A stretch of DNA of 24,000 bases. It comes from Burkholderiaceae bacterium (GTDB taxonomy: Bacteria > Pseudomonadota > Gammaproteobacteria > Burkholderiales > Burkholderiaceae_D). Of the stretch, positions 358 through 8,200 are shown piece by piece. Numbering within the stretch: the stretch's first letter is position 1; each line of letters begins with the position of its first letter. The notes under the pieces are model-generated. The model did no database searches and was not told the DNA's origin. It was given only the letters and a program-made list of their open reading frames with translations. The stretch lies in assembly GCA_041736255.1 (NCBI GenBank), contig JBGSTZ010000048.1, forward strand, positions 1 to 24,000, read 5' to 3'. The position numbers were made by a program, and so were the translations under genes.

Positions 358-408
358 TAAATGAAAATGCAGGAACTGCTTTGAAATTACACTTCCAGGT
401 TGCACAAC

Positions 409-1908
409 CTAAATCTTATAGATTCCACATCCGACCACAAGGTCGTCAATTTTTTCAATATAAGTGGACTTGGATTCGATTACGGTGGTGACGGGATTTG
501 GCCACCGATAATCGACCCAACCATGGCCTGGATTCTTGGAAACTTGCACAAAGTTTTTAATGAAGTACTTCCCGTCAGCATCTTTTAAATCAATTACATT
601 CCGTCCTATTAATTTCGGATTTTCGCCATGCGCTTTTGTATTTCCCTGCTGATCAATTACATTGATATACAAATCGCGATTCTTGAACTGGGGATCAGGT
701 TTGCTAAACGCTGAAAACGCCTTTTCTTTGCCGTTGTCTTTTATATAGGCAATAGCCCGCTTCACCATGGCCACCGCTTCATTTTGATGTTGTTCAAGTT
801 TGAATGCGCTCACGGCTTGCCCCATTGTCACCGCTTGCTGGCGCATGCTTTCTGCTGCAGCCGAGGCCTCCTCCACCAGAGCCGAATTCTGCTGGGTCAT
901 TTCATCCATTTGAACCACGGCCCGATTGACTTCATCAATGCCAATGCTCTGTTCTTGACATGCCTGCGTGATTTCGCTCACTACTTGGACGGTGATTTTG
1001 ACCGACGCGACAATTTCATCCATGGTGTTACCCGCTTTGTCAACGAGTTGGCTACCCGCTTCGACCGCGTCAACTGAGCTTCCTATCAGTGTCTTGATTT
1101 CTTTGGCAGCTTGCGCAGAGCGCTGCGCAAGACTGCGAACCTCGGAAGCCACTACCGCGAATCCTCTGCCTTGTTCACCTGCACGCGCCGCTTCGACGGC
1201 TGCATTCAAGGCCAGAATGTTGGTCTGAAAAGCGATGCCGTCAATCACGCCGATAATGTCGACGATCTTACGTGAACTTTCCTTGATCGACGCCATTGTT
1301 CCAACGACCTGCCCCACTACCTTGCCGCCATTGGCAGCAGCATTTTGTACTGACGCAACCATCTGGTTTGCCTGAACCGCATTGTTCGCATTTTTTTGGA
1401 TTGCGGCGTGGAGTTGCTCCATTGCGCTTGCTGTTTCTTCTAATGCGCTCGCTTGAGATTCGGTGCGTGACGATAGCTCCGCGTTGCCTGCCGCAATTTC
1501 CGAGGAGGTAGAAACAATCGCGTCGCTTCCGGTACGCACGTCGCTCACAATTTTCAGCAAATTCGCATTCATGTCACGCAGCGCAATCACGAGTTCGCTG
1601 ATTTCATCCTTGCCAGTCACCTTTACTTGGGAAGAAAGATCGCCTGCAGCAACTCTCTTGGCAACGGAGACTGCAGCATGCAGTGGCTGCGTGATGCTGT
1701 GGATGAGCGTCCATGTAGCAATGCCGCCCAAAATTATCAGGGCTCCGCAGGTGGTGAGAAGAATCTCCATCATCTGATGGTTCAGCTTGCTTTGCCACGC
1801 AAGAAAGAAAGCAATAAAAATTATTGCGGTAAAACCAGTCATCAGGAGCCCTACTCCGACACCAATCCTGATACCGATATTTGTGTTGCGTAGTTTCAGG
1901 AAGTCCAT
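409..1908 (-). CDS. methyl-accepting chemotaxis protein: TM hairpin, HAMP, MCP signalling domain, C-terminal Cache-like domain
   Basis: 499-aa ORF. Two N-terminal hydrophobic helices are separated by only ~12 aa, followed by a HAMP-like segment. The conserved MCP hairpin tip is present ([21 protein letters not shown]). The C-terminal 122 aa (412-777) have a single-Cache-like signature (long helix, then ...[12 protein letters not shown]...SKSTYIEK...). Confidence 0.9.
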
Positions 1909-1971: not shown

Positions 1972-2006
1972 AAAAAAAAGCGGCGCACAAGGAATGTCAG
2001 CGCCGG
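1972..2006 (-). terminator. rho-independent terminator after the liv-like operon
   Basis: On the minus strand CGGCGC (2005-2000) pairs with GCGCCG (1986-1981), with an inner ACA/TGT extension, then C plus T8 (plus A8 at 1972-1979). It starts 11 nt after the stop of the hemerythrin-ATPase gene. Confidence 0.55.
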
Positions 2007-2016
2007 TTTCTGCTTC

Positions 2017-3345
2017 TCACATTCCGAGATATGCCGCGCGTACCTGTTCGTTACTAATGAGTTCCTGGCCGGTGCCGGTAAGGATGATGTTGCCGGTTTC
2101 CAGCACATAGCCACGGTCTGCAATAGCGAGGGCTGCGAAGGCGTTCTGCTCGACTAGAAAGATGGTCATGCCCTGCGCCTTGAGCGTCTTGACGACGTTA
2201 AACACCTCCTCCACCAGCAGCGGGGCCAGGCCCATGGACGGCTCGTCGAGCAGCAGCATTTTTGGGCGGCCCATTAGCGCCCGGCTGATTGCCAGCATCT
2301 GCTGCTGACCGCCGGACAGTGTGCCTGCAGGAAGTGTGCGTTTCTCCTTCAGGATCGGGAACATCGAGAAGACCATTTCAAGGTCGCCTTCGACCTGATT
2401 TTTGGGCTGGGTGTACGCGCCCAAACGCAAATTATCTTCGATCGACAGCGGCCCAAAAACCTGCCGGCCTTCCGGCGACTGGCAGATACCCCGCTTCATG
2501 CGCAAATCGGCGCGCAGTGTGCTGATGTCTTCGCCGTAAAACTGGATGCTGCCGGCACTCATCGGCTGCACACCAGACAGCGTGCGCAGGAAGGTCGTCT
2601 TGCCCGCACCATTGGCACCAACCAAGGCGACCGTTTCACCACGTCGCACTTCAAGGCTGATTCCATTTAGGGCCCTAATGCGACCATAGCAACTTTCCAT
2701 GCCGCTGACGCTGAGTACGACTTCTGCTTTGCCTGCTGCAGTAGCCGGCTGCAAACGGCCTGCCGATTGCGCGCCCAGACCGATGGATTCGGGCGCCAGA
2801 CTTACGATACGATGAAAAAGCTCGCGGAATTCGGCCTTGGCCTTTTCGCCAAAAAGCGGGTCTTCGTTGTCGAGGAAAGCGCCATCAATTTCAGCCCAGT
2901 CTGCTGCAGTCAACACTTCACGCGCAAGGGGAATGACATCCGTCTCTTCAGCGCGAATATGGTTTTTCAGACCTTGTGTATAGGTACGCAGGGACGCAGC
3001 AAAAGCTGGGTTACCGACTTTTCCACTGGCGGCGCTTGCCATTTGCTCGCGCAAATGGGCAAGGTTGTGCGGCCCATTGCGGTGCTCTGCCTGCAGACGA
3101 TCGAGGATGGAAGATGCATCCGCGCTGCGTGTACGCAGGATGCGAAACAGGAAGTCGTCTTCCTTGGGGTGGTGCGAACGGTCGATGAATTGTTCGACGT
3201 AATCAAAAATCGAGTTGAAAAATGGCTGTTCGATCTTGCCGCCGGCTTCGATTTCATCTGCCACCAGATCCATCGTGGTCAGGATGCGCCATAGATTGCG
3301 GTGTTCATCGCTGATGATGCGGAGTGCTTCCATGCTGTTCTCCAT
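2017..3345 (-). CDS. fusion protein: N-terminal hemerythrin-like HHE domain plus LivF-type branched-chain/HAAT ABC transporter ATPase
   Basis: Single 442-aa ORF. Residues ~1-190 carry H15, H58xxxE62, H88, H129xxxE133 spaced as in hemerythrin-like domains. Residues ~206-442 are a LivF-like ATPase (Walker A GANGAGKTT, signature LSGGQQQML, Walker B LLLDEPSMGL, C-terminal AYLG). There is no start codon at the junction. An alternative start is the internal ATG at 3333, which has GGAGA upstream. Confidence 0.85.
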   Translation of the reverse strand: MENSMEALRIISDEHRNLWRILTTMDLVADEIEAGGKIEQPFFNSIFDYVEQFIDRSHHPKEDDFLFRILRTRSADASSILDRLQAEHRNGPHNLAHLREQMASAASGKVGNPAFAASLRTYTQGLKNHIRAEETDVIPLAREVLTAADWAEIDGAFLDNEDPLFGEKAKAEFRELFHRIVSLAPESIGLGAQSAGRLQPATAAGKAEVVLSVSGMESCYGRIRALNGISLEVRRGETVALVGANGAGKTTFLRTLSGVQPMSAGSIQFYGEDISTLRADLRMKRGICQSPEGRQVFGPLSIEDNLRLGAYTQPKNQVEGDLEMVFSMFPILKEKRTLPAGTLSGGQQQMLAISRALMGRPKMLLLDEPSMGLAPLLVEEVFNVVKTLKAQGMTIFLVEQNAFAALAIADRGYVLETGNIILTGTGQELISNEQVRAAYLGM

Positions 3346-3349
3346 ATGA

Positions 3350-4111
3350 TTATGGTTGCGCGCCGAGATAGGCGGCGATCACATCGGGATTCTTGCGAAC
3401 TTCCTCGCCGGTGCCTTCGGCAAGCTTTTTGCCGTAGTCGAGAACGAGGATGCGGTCGGAGAGATTCATTACCATCTTCATGTCATGCTCAACCAGAACG
3501 ACAGTGACGCCGGAATCGGCGACCTTGCGCACCAATTCATCGACTTCGATAGTTTCCTTGGGATTCAGACCAGCAGCCGGTTCATCCAGAAAGATAAGGC
3601 GTGGTTTCGAGGCCAGCGCCCGGGCTATTTCCAGACGCTTAAGGGCACCGTACGGCATGCTGTCGGCACGAGCCTCGATATAATTTTCCAGGCCGACAAA
3701 ACGCATCAGTTCGGCGGCTTCGCCATGAAGTTCGCGGTCACGGCGCTTGATACTGGGGAAGCGCAGGGCCGCTTTGAGCGGATTGCGATCCAGACGCAGG
3801 TGCGCGCCGACCATCACGTTCTCGATCGCCATCATATTCATGCAGATCTGCAGATTCTGGAATGTGCGGGCGACGCCACGCTTGGCCAGTTCGTTCGGCG
3901 TTTTGCCGCCGATCGATTCTCCATCGAGTTTGATTTCGCCGCTGGATGGTGTGTATATCCCAGTGATCAAATTGAACAGCGTGGTCTTGCCTGCGCCATT
4001 GGGGCCAATCACCGCATAGACAATTCCGGCATCAATGCTGAAGCTGACGTTCTGCACCGCCTTGACTCCGCCAAAGTTGATGGAGAGCTGGTTGACATCA
4101 AGTAAGGCCAT
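3350..4111 (-). CDS. LivG-type ABC transporter ATP-binding protein (HAAT family)
   Basis: 253 aa with Walker A GPNGAGKTT, Walker B LIFLDEPAAGLN, VEHDM and C-terminal AAYLG. The stop is 4 nt before the next gene. Confidence 0.9.
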   Translation of the reverse strand: MALLDVNQLSINFGGVKAVQNVSFSIDAGIVYAVIGPNGAGKTTLFNLITGIYTPSSGEIKLDGESIGGKTPNELAKRGVARTFQNLQICMNMMAIENVMVGAHLRLDRNPLKAALRFPSIKRRDRELHGEAAELMRFVGLENYIEARADSMPYGALKRLEIARALASKPRLIFLDEPAAGLNPKETIEVDELVRKVADSGVTVVLVEHDMKMVMNLSDRILVLDYGKKLAEGTGEEVRKNPDVIAAYLGAQP

Positions 4112-4113
4112 GT

Positions 4114-5046
4114 TTATTCCCCTTTCCCAAATTTGGCAGCCAGCGTGGGTACCAGCCCCTTAGGCATGAAAATCATGCAGAGCATCAGGATGGCACCAAA
4201 AACGACCGTTTCCCAGCCCTCAAAAGTGACCAGAAACTGCGGCAGTGCGGTGAGAAGTACCGCGCCGACCAGCGAGCCATAGACTGAAGCCATGCCACCT
4301 ATGACGACCATGGTGACCAGTTCGATCGAGTGGAAAAAGTCAGCAATGTTAGGCGTCACGAAGCCAACGTAATGTGCGGTGACGCTACCCATCAGGCTGG
4401 CAAAAACTGCTGATATGACAAAGATCGCCATTTTGTAACGCACCACATCCACGCCGACGACCTGCGAAGCGACTTCGGAACCATGCAGGGCGCGCAAGGC
4501 GCGGCCGAACGGCGAATCGATCAAGTTAAGCGAAGCCCAGACACTGATGGATAGCAACAGAGCAACGACCCAGTACCAGTGCTTGTCACTGCTGAGTTCA
4601 AAGCCCAACAAGCCCATCGACGGTACCGGCATGCCGTCCGGGCCGCCGGTCCAGGCCGCCTCGGTGCGCAGCACGATATTGATGATGATGCCGATGCCAA
4701 GGGTGGCCATGGCCAGATAATGGCCCTTGAGTTTGAAGATCGGACGGGCAATCAAGGCCGCCAGCAGACCGGTGAAAGCAGCGCCCGCGCCCATGGCCAG
4801 CAGCGGATGCCAGCCGAAGTGGGTCGGTAACACGGCGGAGGCATAGGCGCCAATGCCCAGAAAGCCAGCGTGGCCCAAACTGATTTGCCCGGCGAAACCG
4901 ATCAGCAGGTTCAGGCCCAGCACGATTACCGCATTGATCGCCATACGAATAGCGATATCAAGGTAATAACTATTGGGCAAGATGAATGGAAGGATCAGCA
5001 GGATGCCGATGACGATATAAAGACCATAGTAGGTGTTCTTTTGCAT
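4114..5046 (-). CDS. LivM-type ABC transporter permease (HAAT family)
   Basis: 310-aa polytopic hydrophobic protein with the GQISLGHAGFLGIGAY motif typical of LivM-like permeases. It is tightly packed between the LivH-like and LivG-like genes. Confidence 0.9.
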   Translation of the reverse strand: MQKNTYYGLYIVIGILLILPFILPNSYYLDIAIRMAINAVIVLGLNLLIGFAGQISLGHAGFLGIGAYASAVLPTHFGWHPLLAMGAGAAFTGLLAALIARPIFKLKGHYLAMATLGIGIIINIVLRTEAAWTGGPDGMPVPSMGLLGFELSSDKHWYWVVALLLSISVWASLNLIDSPFGRALRALHGSEVASQVVGVDVVRYKMAIFVISAVFASLMGSVTAHYVGFVTPNIADFFHSIELVTMVVIGGMASVYGSLVGAVLLTALPQFLVTFEGWETVVFGAILMLCMIFMPKGLVPTLAAKFGKGE

Positions 5047-5048
5047 TT

Positions 5049-5924
5049 TTACACACGATCCGTCGATTTACCGCCAAACAGTCCACGCGGCATGAAAAAG
5101 AGAATGAAGAGAATGAGTACGAAAGGAATCGCATCTTTGTAGGCAGAGGAAATGTAACCAGCACCCATGGCCTCAAGAATACCGACCAGCAGGCCGCCAA
5201 TCACTGCGCCGAGCCCGTTGCCCAAGCCGCCCACGACAGCGGCGACAAAACCTTTCAAGCCGAGCATGATTCCAACGTCATAAGAGGTGAGCGTAATCGG
5301 CGTGACCAGAATGCCACCCAAGGCCCCAAGTCCCGCCGCCATGGCAAAACTCATGAATAGCACCCAACTTGTATTAATGCCCACTAATTCTGCTGCCAGC
5401 CGGTTGTAGGACGTGGCAAGCATCGCCTTTCCCTGCAGTGTGCGATTAAAGAAATACCACATGGCAATTACCGCCAGTGAAGTTCCACCCAGCACCCAGA
5501 GACTTTGTGGCATCAGTATCGCGCCCAATATTTGAATTGGGGCATCGCCGGAAAAGGCAGGCAGGCTATGGGTTCCTTTGCCCAGCCAGACTTGGACCAG
5601 ACCTCGAATCACGAGTGAAGCGCCGATGGTAATGATGATCAGTGTCACCGTTTCAGCGTTCTTCACGGGCTCAATCGCTATTTTTTCCATCAGTATGCCG
5701 ACGACGGCTGGTATCAGAATCGCCAGCAGCAGCGCTACCGGCATTGGCAGCCCGGCCTGGGTAAAAAACACCGCCAGCATGCCGCCGAGCATGATGAATT
5801 CACCTTGAGCAAAGTTAATCACGTTGCTGGAGTTATAAATTAGGGTGAAGCCCAAGGCGGACAGGGCATAGACGGCACCGACGGTGATGCCAGAGAAAAG
5901 GAATTGCAGGAACTGAGCAAACAT
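5049..5924 (-). CDS. LivH-type ABC transporter permease (HAAT family)
   Basis: Hydrophobic 291-aa protein (INFAQGEF..., typical LivH). I chose the ATG at 5922-5924, which has AAGGAGA 5 nt upstream, rather than the TTG at 5927 used in the ORF track. Confidence 0.9.
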   Translation of the reverse strand: MFAQFLQFLFSGITVGAVYALSALGFTLIYNSSNVINFAQGEFIMLGGMLAVFFTQAGLPMPVALLLAILIPAVVGILMEKIAIEPVKNAETVTLIIITIGASLVIRGLVQVWLGKGTHSLPAFSGDAPIQILGAILMPQSLWVLGGTSLAVIAMWYFFNRTLQGKAMLATSYNRLAAELVGINTSWVLFMSFAMAAGLGALGGILVTPITLTSYDVGIMLGLKGFVAAVVGGLGNGLGAVIGGLLVGILEAMGAGYISSAYKDAIPFVLILFILFFMPRGLFGGKSTDRV

Positions 5925-6031
5925 CAAATTCTCCTTCTTGTTGTGGCGAAAACCAGGTCGCTGATCGACTGCTTGGGCATTTTGTGTCTCCTGATAGTTT
6001 TAATAAAAAGCTTTGCGCTTATTTTACTTTC

Positions 6032-6056
6032 ATTCTGAAATACAGAATATATTCTG
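6032..6056. promoter_or_regulatory. candidate operator: ATTCTG-aaata-CAGAAT-at-ATTCTG (includes the perfect 14-bp palindrome CAGAATATATTCTG)
   Basis: Read directly from the sequence. It lies immediately downstream of the predicted -10 of the liv-like operon promoter, which would fit a repressor site. Confidence 0.45.
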
Positions 6057-6059
6057 CTA

Positions 6060-6088
6060 ATAGTAAATGATACAAAAAAACAGTGCAA
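6060..6088 (-). promoter_or_regulatory. sigma70-type promoter of the liv-like operon (TTGCAC-N17-TACTAT)
   Basis: On the minus strand TTGCAC (6088-6083), a 17-nt spacer, then TACTAT (6065-6060), about 135 nt upstream of the livH-like ATG. This is a sequence match only. Confidence 0.45.
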
Positions 6089-6114
6089 TCTATATTCATG
6101 TATCGGTTGCACTG
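6074..6114 (-). terminator. possible rho-independent terminator of the MBL/monooxygenase/DUF2783 operon
   Basis: On the minus strand CAGTGCAA (6114-6107) pairs with TTGCACTG (6088-6081), followed by T7 (plus A7 at 6074-6080). The 18-nt loop is large and the stem overlaps the predicted -35 of the next promoter. Confidence 0.4.
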
Positions 6115-6294
6115 TTTATCGTGATTAATTTAATTTGACCGTTACGGCAGACGTATAGAGGACAGTTCTCGTCCATTGATATGACCGATTGCGATCAAAT
6201 TTTGAGTTTTTTACAAATGAATCGGGATCTCATTTCGCCCTGTCACTTATTGCAATAAAAACGAGAGTGTCCATTGTGTTGCAGTCTGTGCAGA

Positions 6295-6519
6295 TTAAAT
6301 GTCTTCACGCGCTAGTTGCATCGCCGAACGCAGGATCGCGATATCGCCCACATGATTAGCCAGCAACAAAATTAGCTTCGCATTCAGCAGCGCGCTTTGC
6401 TCGTCGGAAAGATCGCGATGCGTCTCGATCAGCGCTTCATAAAAGTCGTCGCCAGGTGAGAATTCGCGGAAATAGCGCTTGCCCAGTTCGCTGAAATTAG
6501 GGGCCAGATTCAGTGTCAT
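6295..6519 (-). CDS. small DUF2783-like protein (74 aa), possible coupling/accessory subunit of the upstream monooxygenase
   Basis: The ATG at 6517-6519 gives MTLNLAPNFSELGKRYFREFSPGDDFYEALIETHRDLSDEQSALLNAKLILLLANHVGDIAILRSAMQLAREDI, which I recognise as the DUF2783 type. It starts 13 nt after the monooxygenase stop. The longer track ORF (to 6675) would overlap the monooxygenase 3' end. Confidence 0.8.
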   Translation of the reverse strand: MTLNLAPNFSELGKRYFREFSPGDDFYEALIETHRDLSDEQSALLNAKLILLLANHVGDIAILRSAMQLAREDI

Positions 6520-6532
6520 GATAATTTTCCTG

Positions 6533-8200
6533 TTAAAGGTTACAAGTGGCGCGAGACAGCGCCTGTTGTACGCGCGCCGTGTCGAAGGTGCGCCAGCGAG
6601 CAGCAACATGTTGATCGGGGCGAGCCAGGTAATAAGTTCCGCTTTGCGCATCGTAACGCCGGGAGATAATGCCATTGGCGTCGAGCATGACTTTCGCGTT
6701 CTCCAAGTGCCCTGGCTTGCTGGATATGATCAGCGGTTCGATAGGCAGCAACCCACGCGACAATGTGGCGAACTCTTCAAGGACAGAGTTCGGGATTGTC
6801 GCCGGATCATCGCAGAAATACAGGCCATGGAAATGGTTGCCAACATGGTCGATCAACCAGCCATCCTGCGTGCCGATCCTGACCGGACCATCGTCCATCG
6901 GCGCGCCCGGCACCATATCTCCGAGAAATTGATCCACATCCTTCGTATTCAGTCTTGATTCGATCAAAAAGGCCGGTACCGACAGACGGCCGGAATTGAC
7001 CAACTTTCTGGCGAATGTATGCTTTTCCGCTAATTTCAGCACCGCATTGCGGAATGTTTTGCTGGCTGTACTTTTGGGCGTAATGAAATCGGTTGAGCGA
7101 GTCGAATTCATCAGGTTCTCGTCGGCAGCAAAGCCTCGTTCCTCCGAATAGGTATCAAGCAGTTGGCCGGGCGCCTTGCCATCCATGACTAGCTTCAGTT
7201 TCCACACCAAGTTATCGGTATCCTGCACGCCGGAATTAGCGCCGCGCGCACCAAATGGTGATACCTGGTGCGCGGCGTCGCCGACAAATAAGCACTTGCC
7301 ATGCCTGAAACTTTTCATTCGGCGGCATTGAAAAGTGTACACGCTGACCCACTCCAGTTCGAAGTCACGCTCGTCACCCAGCATCGCCTTGATCCGCGGG
7401 ATCACATTTTCCGGTTTTTTTTCTTCGTCCGGATTAGCATCCCAACCGAGTTGAAAATCAATCCGCCAAACATTGTCGGCTTCGCGGTGCAGCAGCACCG
7501 ACTGGTTTGGATGGAACGGCGGATCGAACCAGAACCAACGCTCGGCCGGGAAATCGGCCTTCATCACTACGTCGGCGATCAGGAACCGATCCATGAAAAT
7601 CTTGCCTTCGGTTTCCAGTCCCAGCATATTGCGAATCGGACTGCGCGCGCCGTCTGCCACAATTAGCCAGTCGGCCTCGATCTGATACATGCCATCCGGC
7701 GTTTCGATCTGTAATTTGACGCCACCGCCATCCTCCTCCTGCACCGATACAACCTTATTCTTCCAGCGCATCATTACGCCTGCCGACACTGCTCGCTCCA
7801 CCAGGTATTGTTCCAAATAATACTGTTGCAGATTCACCATGCCCGGCCGCTTTTGATCGGCTTCCGGCTGTAAGTTGAAACTGAACACTTCATCGTTACG
7901 AAAAAAGGTGCGGCCGACATTCCAGCTAACGCCCTTTTCAATGATCGGGTTGCCGCAGCCAAGCCGATCCAGCACTTCAATTGCCCGCTTCGCGTAGCAC
8001 AGACCACGCGAGCCGACCGAGACCGTATCATCGTCATCCAGCAATAGCACTGGGATGTTCTGCAAGCGGCAATCAATCGCCGCCGCCAAGCCAGCCGGGC
8101 CCGCGCCGACAATCACTACCGGGTAGCGCCGCACTGCGTCGCTATTGATTTCTTCCGGCTTAGTGTAAGGAAATTTTGAATAGGTATAAGTTTTTTGCAT
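6533..8200 (-). CDS. FAD-dependent aromatic-ring monooxygenase (PheA/TfdB/MhpA class A flavoprotein hydroxylase with C-terminal thioredoxin-like domain)
   Basis: It has the GxGxxG dinucleotide fold (VVIVGAGPAGLAAA), a DG motif (LIVADGARSPIR) and GD...H...G (FVGDAAHQVSPFGARGANSGVQD), plus a ~170-aa C-terminal extension typical of the phenol-hydroxylase subgroup. I chose the ATG at 8200, which has GGAGA upstream. Confidence 0.9.
   Translation of the reverse strand: MQKTYTYSKFPYTKPEEINSDAVRRYPVVIVGAGPAGLAAAIDCRLQNIPVLLLDDDDTVSVGSRGLCYAKRAIEVLDRLGCGNPIIEKGVSWNVGRTFFRNDEVFSFNLQPEADQKRPGMVNLQQYYLEQYLVERAVSAGVMMRWKNKVVSVQEEDGGGVKLQIETPDGMYQIEADWLIVADGARSPIRNMLGLETEGKIFMDRFLIADVVMKADFPAERWFWFDPPFHPNQSVLLHREADNVWRIDFQLGWDANPDEEKKPENVIPRIKAMLGDERDFELEWVSVYTFQCRRMKSFRHGKCLFVGDAAHQVSPFGARGANSGVQDTDNLVWKLKLVMDGKAPGQLLDTYSEERGFAADENLMNSTRSTDFITPKSTASKTFRNAVLKLAEKHTFARKLVNSGRLSVPAFLIESRLNTKDVDQFLGDMVPGAPMDDGPVRIGTQDGWLIDHVGNHFHGLYFCDDPATIPNSVLEEFATLSRGLLPIEPLIISSKPGHLENAKVMLDANGIISRRYDAQSGTYYLARPDQHVAARWRTFDTARVQQALSRATCNL

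Follow-up and report, generated by a model that had tools for sequence, protein, structure and literature searches.

The 24,000-nt window analysed here (the whole stretch from position 1 to 24,000 of contig JBGSTZ010000048.1, assembly GCA_041736255.1, from a Burkholderiaceae bacterium) carries on its minus strand, at 409–1908, an open reading frame (ORF) for a chemoreceptor of 499 amino acids, as given by the ORF list and its translation. The protein is a methyl-accepting chemotaxis protein (MCP) in which the signalling domain is followed by a C-terminal Cache module of the sCache_2 family, and this module must be cytoplasmic. It was assigned, with somewhat better than an even chance of being right, as a membrane-anchored MCP of the Tsr-like (36-heptad) type, whose sole sensor would be the cytoplasmic sCache_2 module, binding a small carboxylate metabolite and controlling CheA. 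The module is joined by a 7-residue junction to the point where the C-terminal helix of the signalling bundle ends, which places it just beneath the membrane, beside the HAMP domain.

Topology was deduced from Kyte–Doolittle hydropathy of the whole protein and from a full-length AlphaFold2 (AF2) model (predicted local distance difference test score, pLDDT, 81). By hydropathy two hydrophobic segments only were found (residues ~15–39 and ~46–70); beyond residue 100 there is none except the buried hairpin-tip region, and hydropathy over the Cache part, which makes up the last 130 residues, peaks at 0.5. The module was placed in the cytoplasm because no transmembrane (TM) segment follows HAMP. The loop joining TM1 and TM2 measures ~5–8 residues by hydropathy and in the full-length model; a preliminary description of the sequence had given ~12 residues, so that the loop is indeed short and its length had been overstated. 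That description had also held that the receptor has no periplasmic ligand-binding domain, on which hydropathy and AF2 agree, that the HAMP and MCP signalling domains are complete, as they are by Pfam, and that the module is topologically cytoplasmic; a third TM segment was looked for by hydropathy and AF2, and none was found. Full-length homologues (48–84 % identity; protein search and alignment) have the identical domain order, and a TM hairpin without a periplasmic domain is the state of most of them too.

The identity of the module was established in three ways. The sCache_2 profile (PF17200) matched the full protein with 69.3 bits (E 5e-19) and the last 127 residues with 71.2 bits (E 1e-19), at a cut-off of 25, and a weaker dCache_2 match overlaps it. 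A PDB-wide phmmer search with residues 363–499 matched sCache_2 ligand-binding domains (LBDs) only: Adeh_3718 (4K08, E 2e-9), PscD (5G4Y), VP0183 (4EXO/2QHK) and TlpB (3UB6). The isolated module was modelled by AF2 with a pLDDT of 92.4 and the order H-H-E-E-H-E-E-E, and the top 11 Foldseek matches to it are all sCache_2 LBDs (TM-score 0.68–0.77, E 6e-11 to 5e-9). The sCache_2-like character proposed earlier is therefore backed alike by hidden Markov model (HMM), by similarity to solved domains and by predicted fold; the proposed limits of 412–777 (residues 378–499) stand as well, with the first helix beginning in the AF2 model at residue 375. Assignment as a PAS domain was tried and ruled out: no PAS-clan HMM matched even at E ≤ 1, and PYP and other PAS domains gave weak structural matches (Foldseek TM-score 0.41–0.52, ~0.45). 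CZB (PF13682) had no match in the Pfam scan of the receptor.

A C-terminal helix is absent from the module: the protein stops directly after the last strand, at GIYKI, and the module is linked to the receptor by its N-terminal helix only. The usual placement of sCache_2, extracytoplasmic and between two TM helices, is not seen here, as there is no flanking TM segment. It was recorded for 1783 of 2243 sCache_2 proteins (PMC4822843 Table S9); because 174 of the 2243 have no TM segment at all (PMC4822843), extracytoplasmic placement is typical, not obligatory.

Pocket positions were mapped by using the gapless stretch of the module-versus-PDB phmmer alignment. The residues of Adeh_3718 that hold acetate are Y94, H107, Y147 and K160, with W96 and W149 stacked on either side of the ligand and L129, F130 and F133 facing it (PMC3831638); the equivalents at the propionate site of PscD are Y90, H103, Y143, K156, W92, W145 and F126 (PMC5062169). 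The Adeh_3718 series Y94/W96/H107/L129/F130/F133/Y147/W149/K160 corresponds to Y414/N416/H427/F449/I450/F453/Y467/W469/K480 of the receptor; Y414, H427 and K480 align with the PscD triad Y90, H103 and K156, and Y467 and W469 with Y143 and W145. Across 70 receptor-fused modules, Y414 and K480 are each found in 70/70, Y467 in 68/70, and H427 and W469 each in 55/70. The near-invariance of Y414, Y467 and K480 argues for selection on ligand binding, and the best guess from these residues is a ligand that carries a carboxylate, namely a small cytoplasmic carboxylate. Outside this set, Cys494 (427–429), in the last strand GCGIYK, is invariant in the 70 fused modules; its position is Cys, Ser, Val or Ala in secreted relatives of the module, which are described below, and Ser or Thr in the solved periplasmic domains.

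The signalling part was compared with Tsr of E. coli. Residues 102–377 align with Tsr 248–523 over 276 residues with zero gaps (phmmer, E 9e-84); the bundle is therefore of Tsr length, with no heptad insertions or deletions. Tsr is said to have been assigned to the 36-heptad class (36H) by Alexander & Zhulin in 2007. MCPsignal (PF00015) was matched at residues 183–338 (E 4e-51; 173.6 bits versus a cut-off of 34.6), and the 16-residue hairpin-tip motif is identical to that of Tsr. The methylation sites of Tsr are Q297, E304, Q311, E493 and E502; E158, Q165 and E347 of the receptor align with E304, Q311 and E493, and E or Q is kept at three of the five positions. At the end of the bundle AVSAFKLEQ stands against AVAVFRIQQ of Tsr (shared motif AV(S/A)xF(K/R)(L/I); the junction is aligned with AVAVFRIQQQ), and F369 and L371 are invariant in the homologue alignment. 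Judged by this alignment, the Cache module is placed to start where the flexible linker of Tsr to its NWETF pentapeptide starts; the protein sequence of the receptor contains no xWxxF pentapeptide. The host genome (95 % complete) holds 19 MCPsignal matches and 9 CheW-domain matches, CheA-sized frames included, so a chemotaxis system exists in the host; a receptor with the module is encoded there by this gene only.

In the mechanism proposed, the module would bind a small cytoplasmic metabolite bearing a carboxylate, and the signal would go back through the first helix of the module (alpha-1) and the 7-residue junction into the ascending helix of the bundle. This backward path is the only covalent route, because the protein stops right after the last β-strand. 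Lateral contact between module and HAMP, as in Aer, would be an additional possible route, alone or combined with the first. Either would alter helix packing and so control CheA, with adaptation through the retained candidate methylation sites, and the receptor would report an internal metabolite (metabolism- or uptake-dependent taxis), not an external chemical. A precedent for a C-terminal sensor is TlpD of H. pylori, in which CZB controls the distant tip from the same bundle end (preprint 10.64898/2026.01.16.699579).

Several points weigh against this assignment. S151 and R356 stand at the positions of Tsr Q297 and E502. The junction is non-helical in the full-length AF2 model (pLDDT ~72) and helical in that of the isolated domain; as the models conflict, coupling may be rigid or loose. 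H427 and W469 are replaced in about one fifth of the fused modules. Asn416 takes the place of the first stacking Trp found in C2/C3-carboxylate sites; the specificity may for this reason not be that for acetate or propionate, and the ligand is, to go by the pocket residues, probably not identical to that of the acetate/propionate sensors. Finally, the literature on cytoplasmic, intracellular or C-terminal Cache domains yielded no experimental study of a Cache domain after MCPsignal. Position 416 (661–663) differs systematically between inside and outside modules: fused modules have Asn, Ser, Val or Ala there and secreted relatives mostly Phe or Tyr, while the solved C2/C3 binders have Trp.

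The module belongs to a large family; an exhaustive HMMER search with a 127-residue query gave 5548 clusters at E ≤ 0.001. The family has three forms, namely single-module proteins of 150–170 aa, arrays in which 2 to 16 or more modules follow in tandem, and the C-termini of receptors. Of the relatives that are not receptors, the closest, from genomes of the same family, are proteins of ~153 aa with 51–55 % identity in the genome search and 57 % in the exhaustive protein search. All ten of those that were read carry classic signal peptides. Among 153 relatives with single or tandem modules, 137 begin with a hydrophobic leader; of the 16 that do not, at least six seem to have lost their N-terminus or are fragments of receptors. 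The receptor module can be aligned end to end with the secreted protein in its mature form, so that the fusion joined the last helix of the receptor to the site where the signal peptide would have been. Trees group the fused modules into at least four supported clades, which share a polytomy with secreted single-module proteins; several independent fusions are not shown by this, as a single clade is not rejected by the approximately unbiased (AU) test (p = 0.276).

This layout has been described before. It is already catalogued in Pfam architectures, in Upadhyay 2016, where HAMP~MCPsignal~Cache_2 and sCache_2 after MCPsignal are tabulated (e.g., Q21VZ4, A1TQ23, A4G167; PMC4822843 S5 Data), and in Ortega & Krell 2020, where sCACHE2 (Pf17200) comes fourth among C-terminal domains, after CZB, PilZ and hemerythrin (PMC7390727 Supp. 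Fig. 2). Going by the last two sources, it is not unusual enough to count as new. The survey of MCPsignal-then-Cache architectures that had been recommended in the preliminary description was carried out, and the layout recurs. A word-indexed protein search gave ~50 clusters of 480–530 aa with the identical domain order, from Oxalobacteraceae, Herbaspirillum, Noviherbaspirillum, Telluria and Rhodoferax ferrireducens T118; variants of ~640 and ~785 aa add a periplasmic four-helix-bundle (4HB) or dCache sensor. A search of 400 sampled genomes of the order was made with the last 200 receptor residues as query; at least 30 loci in at least 27 genomes, under 10 family codes, have the tail of the methyl-accepting (MA) domain and Cache colinear in one frame, and most of these genes code for proteins of ~500–540 aa that have a TM hairpin but lack a periplasmic domain. 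What is new here is that the non-receptor relatives are secreted single or tandem Cache proteins, whose mature part the module matches, grafted on where the flexible tail of Tsr begins; that the carboxylate-binding Tyr/His/Tyr/Trp/Lys set is kept, with Asn or Ser for the first stacking Trp in fused modules; and that the gene follows an operon for a LIV (leucine/isoleucine/valine)-type importer in three lineages.

The receptor can be set beside five known kinds of protein. With the periplasmic sCache_2 LBDs (Adeh_3718, 4K08, acetate; PscD, 5G4Y/5G4Z, C2/C3 carboxylates; VP0183 of V. parahaemolyticus, 4EXO, pyruvate; TlpB of H. pylori, 3UB6, urea) the module shares PF17200, 19–26 % identity, a TM-score of 0.68–0.77, the helix-helix-β-core order, the carboxylate-contacting Tyr, His, Tyr, Trp and Lys, and the hydrophobic wall. 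Those domains lie between TM1 and TM2 and pass by a C-terminal helix into TM2, whereas the module is cytoplasmic, comes after the signalling domain, lacks a C-terminal helix, is attached by its N-terminal helix alone and has Asn for the first stacking Trp. In having its sensor after the MA domain, in the cytoplasm and at the membrane-proximal end of the bundle, the receptor resembles the receptors with C-terminal LBDs, TlpD among them, a class called "poorly characterized" (Ortega & Krell 2020, PMC7390727); it fits that class with MCPsignal at 183–338, sCache_2 at 375–497 and the sensor C-terminal to PF00015. TlpD, which is soluble and has a helical CZB zinc site, is an analogue in layout only, as CZB was not found here and the receptor is membrane-anchored, with HAMP and a Cache domain of PAS-like fold. 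With Tsr the gapless alignment, the tip motif, E or Q at three of the five methylation positions and the bundle end are shared; in place of the periplasmic four-helix bundle and the tail to NWETF, the receptor has a ~5-residue loop and the Cache module.

Aer offers a model for lateral signalling from sensor to HAMP. Like Aer, the receptor is anchored by a TM hairpin only and has a PAS-superfamily sensor in the cytoplasm near HAMP, together with a related MA domain (match to Aer structure 31cj, E 3e-50); unlike the N-terminal, FAD-binding PAS domain of Aer, its sensor is C-terminal and of the Cache family, with no cofactor motif evident. The secreted short sCache_2 proteins (150–170 aa and multi-module arrays) reach 55–57 % full-length identity and share the motifs RDLY, HG, KD-DGK, GxGW-DY-W-NP, K-xY and GCG-YK; they differ in having Sec-type signal peptides and no signalling domain, and in position 416.

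Cache domains are regarded as the main extracellular sensors of bacteria, and control by a C-terminal sensor is known in structural detail only for the zinc site of TlpD. The receptor family is widespread in the sampled order (at least 27 of 400 genomes); its closeness to Tsr makes it testable in E. coli signalling assays, and the secreted sister proteins would allow the same fold to be compared outside and inside the cell. With its ligand identified, the receptor would become a defined example of metabolism-dependent taxis and show how a signal enters the bundle from the C-terminal helix. For annotation, "MCP without periplasmic domain" does not mean that there is no sensor, nor does a Pfam Cache match alone mean that a domain is periplasmic. 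Re-use of outside-type binding modules at the cytoplasmic tail of receptors may be a general phenomenon, because SBP_bac_5, SBP_bac_3, phosphonate-binding and other solute-binding-protein families are also listed after MCPsignal (PMC7390727 Supp. Fig. 2).

The position of the gene, immediately downstream of an importer operon as first described and on the same strand, suggests a more specific ligand. Upstream on this strand are livH, livM, livG, a hemerythrin–livF fusion, genes for a flavin adenine dinucleotide (FAD)-dependent monooxygenase, a DUF2783 protein and a metallo-β-lactamase (MBL)-fold protein and, farther away, paaD and paaE. In the alternative drawn from this neighbourhood, the Cache module senses an aromatic acid (phenylacetate/hydroxyphenylacetate), its coenzyme A ester or an intermediate supplied by the adjacent LIV importer and the paa and monooxygenase genes, so that taxis to aromatic acids would depend on their transport or metabolism. 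We consider it unlikely. In its favour, the receptor gene comes directly after livF, in the same orientation, both in the window and in two close orthologues, in which the downstream sides differ; a 60 %-identical Herbaspirillum homologue directly follows a LIV-type ATP-binding cassette (ABC) operon with a PaaZ-like Aldedh+MaoC gene; and a 38 %-identical homologue from another family follows livKHMGF. Given ~8 LIV systems in the 3.6-Mb host genome, three such adjacencies in ~20 loci exceed a base rate of ~0.2–1 %. The change of Trp to Asn/Ser could, moreover, enlarge the pocket.

Against this ligand stand the unrelated neighbours of most homologues, examples being thiolase, acyl-CoA ligase and short-chain dehydrogenase/reductase (SDR) genes (Rhodoferax) and a cytochrome c gene (a sediment metagenome-assembled genome); in all, 19 of 25 examined loci lack LIV genes within 7 kb. 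At another locus a LIV operon lies 2.2 kb off, on the opposite strand. Around the third LIV-linked receptor there are genes for a carboxylesterase and a TetR regulator, but no paa genes. Apart from Asn416, the pocket agrees with that of C2/C3-carboxylate binders, with F449, I450 and F453 as wall; in PscD, the corresponding hydrophobic wall excludes larger acids (PMC5062169). The spacer between livF and the receptor gene also contains a terminator-like hairpin with a run of eight T, at a distance of 12 nt from the livF stop codon (2017–2019) and ~64 nt before the receptor start codon. Its function as a terminator is uncertain; a terminator scanner did not call it (the loop of 13 nt exceeds the 8-nt limit), and the minimum-free-energy (MFE) fold of the spacer prefers another pairing. 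As the lineages are related, the sample is small and the statistic is rough, the LIV adjacency in three lineages is a lead, not a result.

A bolder form, in which the receptor is transport-coupled, was thought quite improbable. In it, a formerly secreted Cache module moved inside would report the substrate or first metabolite of the LIV importer, or would dock on the hemerythrin–LivF ATPase. Were it true, cells would steer by uptake flux and not by external concentration, and the change of Trp to Asn/Ser and the invariant Cys494 would mark a new specificity.

There is little probability, in our judgement, that the module is no ligand sensor and instead a structural or docking element that replaces the tail of Tsr-type receptors, with roles in stabilisation of dimers or arrays, recruitment of CheR/CheB or another partner, or docking on the hemerythrin–LivF ATPase. 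It would account for the module sitting exactly at the position of the Tsr linker and pentapeptide tail, with no xWxxF pentapeptide, and for Cys494, which is fixed in the fused modules, variable in secreted relatives and not known to take part in ligand binding; dimerisation is, besides, a known property of sCache_2 domains. It does not fit the invariant residues Y414, Y467 and K480, which are carboxylate contacts in solved homologues and are kept as well in the secreted relatives, where there is no receptor tail that the module could stand in for, and no partner is conserved in the gene neighbourhoods.

That the module is a separate gene joined on by a sequencing or assembly error, or is put in the periplasm by a missed TM segment, can practically be dismissed: although its nearest non-receptor relatives are secreted and have signal peptides, the continuous frame recurs in the ~50 protein clusters and in 30 loci of 27 other genomes from independent assemblies, which upholds the earlier treatment of the module as part of one gene, residues 100–499 contain no hydrophobic segment, the junction is polar, and F369 and L371 in it are invariant.

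Base composition was measured over the gene. Its GC content is 42.1 % in the Cache part and 54.3 % in the signalling part, in keeping with the hand counts reported first (~30–55 %, mostly ~40–48 %, versus ~53–65 %). The hint of domain acquisition that had been drawn from this contrast did not hold. The drop in the module lies mostly in codon positions 1 and 2 (GC1, GC2), that is, in amino-acid composition; third-position GC (GC3) of the whole gene is 0.524, versus 0.61–0.74 in the other 19 genes of the window; and in the two orthologues L001 and L002 the whole gene is likewise GC3-poor relative to its locus, with GC3 of the module not below that of the MA part. The signal thus belongs to the gene as a whole and is no evidence that the module was acquired. 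More distant homologues match their hosts in composition. The GC3-poor gene, which looks compositionally foreign or weakly adapted in codon use, may be a fairly recent arrival at its site, or a weakly codon-adapted gene, in a small clade.

Table 1. Features of the receptor gene and its surroundings; coordinates are window positions unless a locus is named.
Feature	Residues	Coordinates	Strand	Basis or remark
Whole receptor gene	499 codons + stop	409..1908	minus	ORF translation
TM1	~11–38	1795..1878	minus	hydropathy peak 2.39 at residues 19–37; AF2 helix 11–38
Very short periplasmic loop, QSKLN	~39–43	1780..1794	minus	hydropathy and AF2
TM2, runs into HAMP helix AS1	~44–67	1708..1779	minus	hydropathy peak 1.95 at residues 46–64; AF2 helix 44–87
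HAMP	68–113	1570..1707	minus	Pfam PF00672, E 4.4e-11, 43.4 bits versus cut-off 25
Signalling/adaptation coiled-coil hairpin, Tsr-like	102–367	808..1605	minus	phmmer to Tsr; Pfam MCPsignal; AF2
Junction, AFKLEQH; bundle end	368–374	787..807	minus	AF2 and Tsr alignment
sCache_2 module; two helices, then five-stranded PAS-like core	375–499	412..786	minus	Pfam PF17200, phmmer, AF2, Foldseek
Predicted pocket span	Y414, N416, H427, F449, I450, F453, Y467, W469, K480	469..669	minus	homology mapping
Layout in full-length AF2 model	TM1 11–38; loop 39–43; TM2 into HAMP 44–87; descending bundle helix 102–242; tip 243; ascending bundle helix 244–367; non-helical junction 368–374; Cache module 375–497			AF2
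Terminator-like hairpin, CGGCGC, 13-nt loop, GCGCCG, then C + T8		1972..2005	minus	read by eye
Other-lineage LIV-operon loci		L003 1067-6950; L028 (reverse-complemented) ~3156-7841		receptor homologue at operon 3′ end

Among the loci compared, a livM–livG fusion belongs, together with the PaaZ-like gene, to one of the two other-lineage LIV operons that end in a receptor homologue. An apparent LivF–receptor fusion in genome G312 and receptors of 717–1277 aa were rejected as over-extended frames in GC-rich DNA; the real genes encode ~520 aa.

The host genome itself encodes, on contig C43 (L007 1492-2394, minus strand), a secreted protein of 300 aa with a signal peptide and two tandem modules, each copy being 37–38 % identical to the receptor module. 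Much longer arrays were found elsewhere in the family, including a 2099-aa protein with 16 matched modules, a 4876-aa protein with 46 matched stretches and many with four or eight; nearly all of the long-array proteins (P0121, P0179, P0122 and others) have an N-terminal leader.

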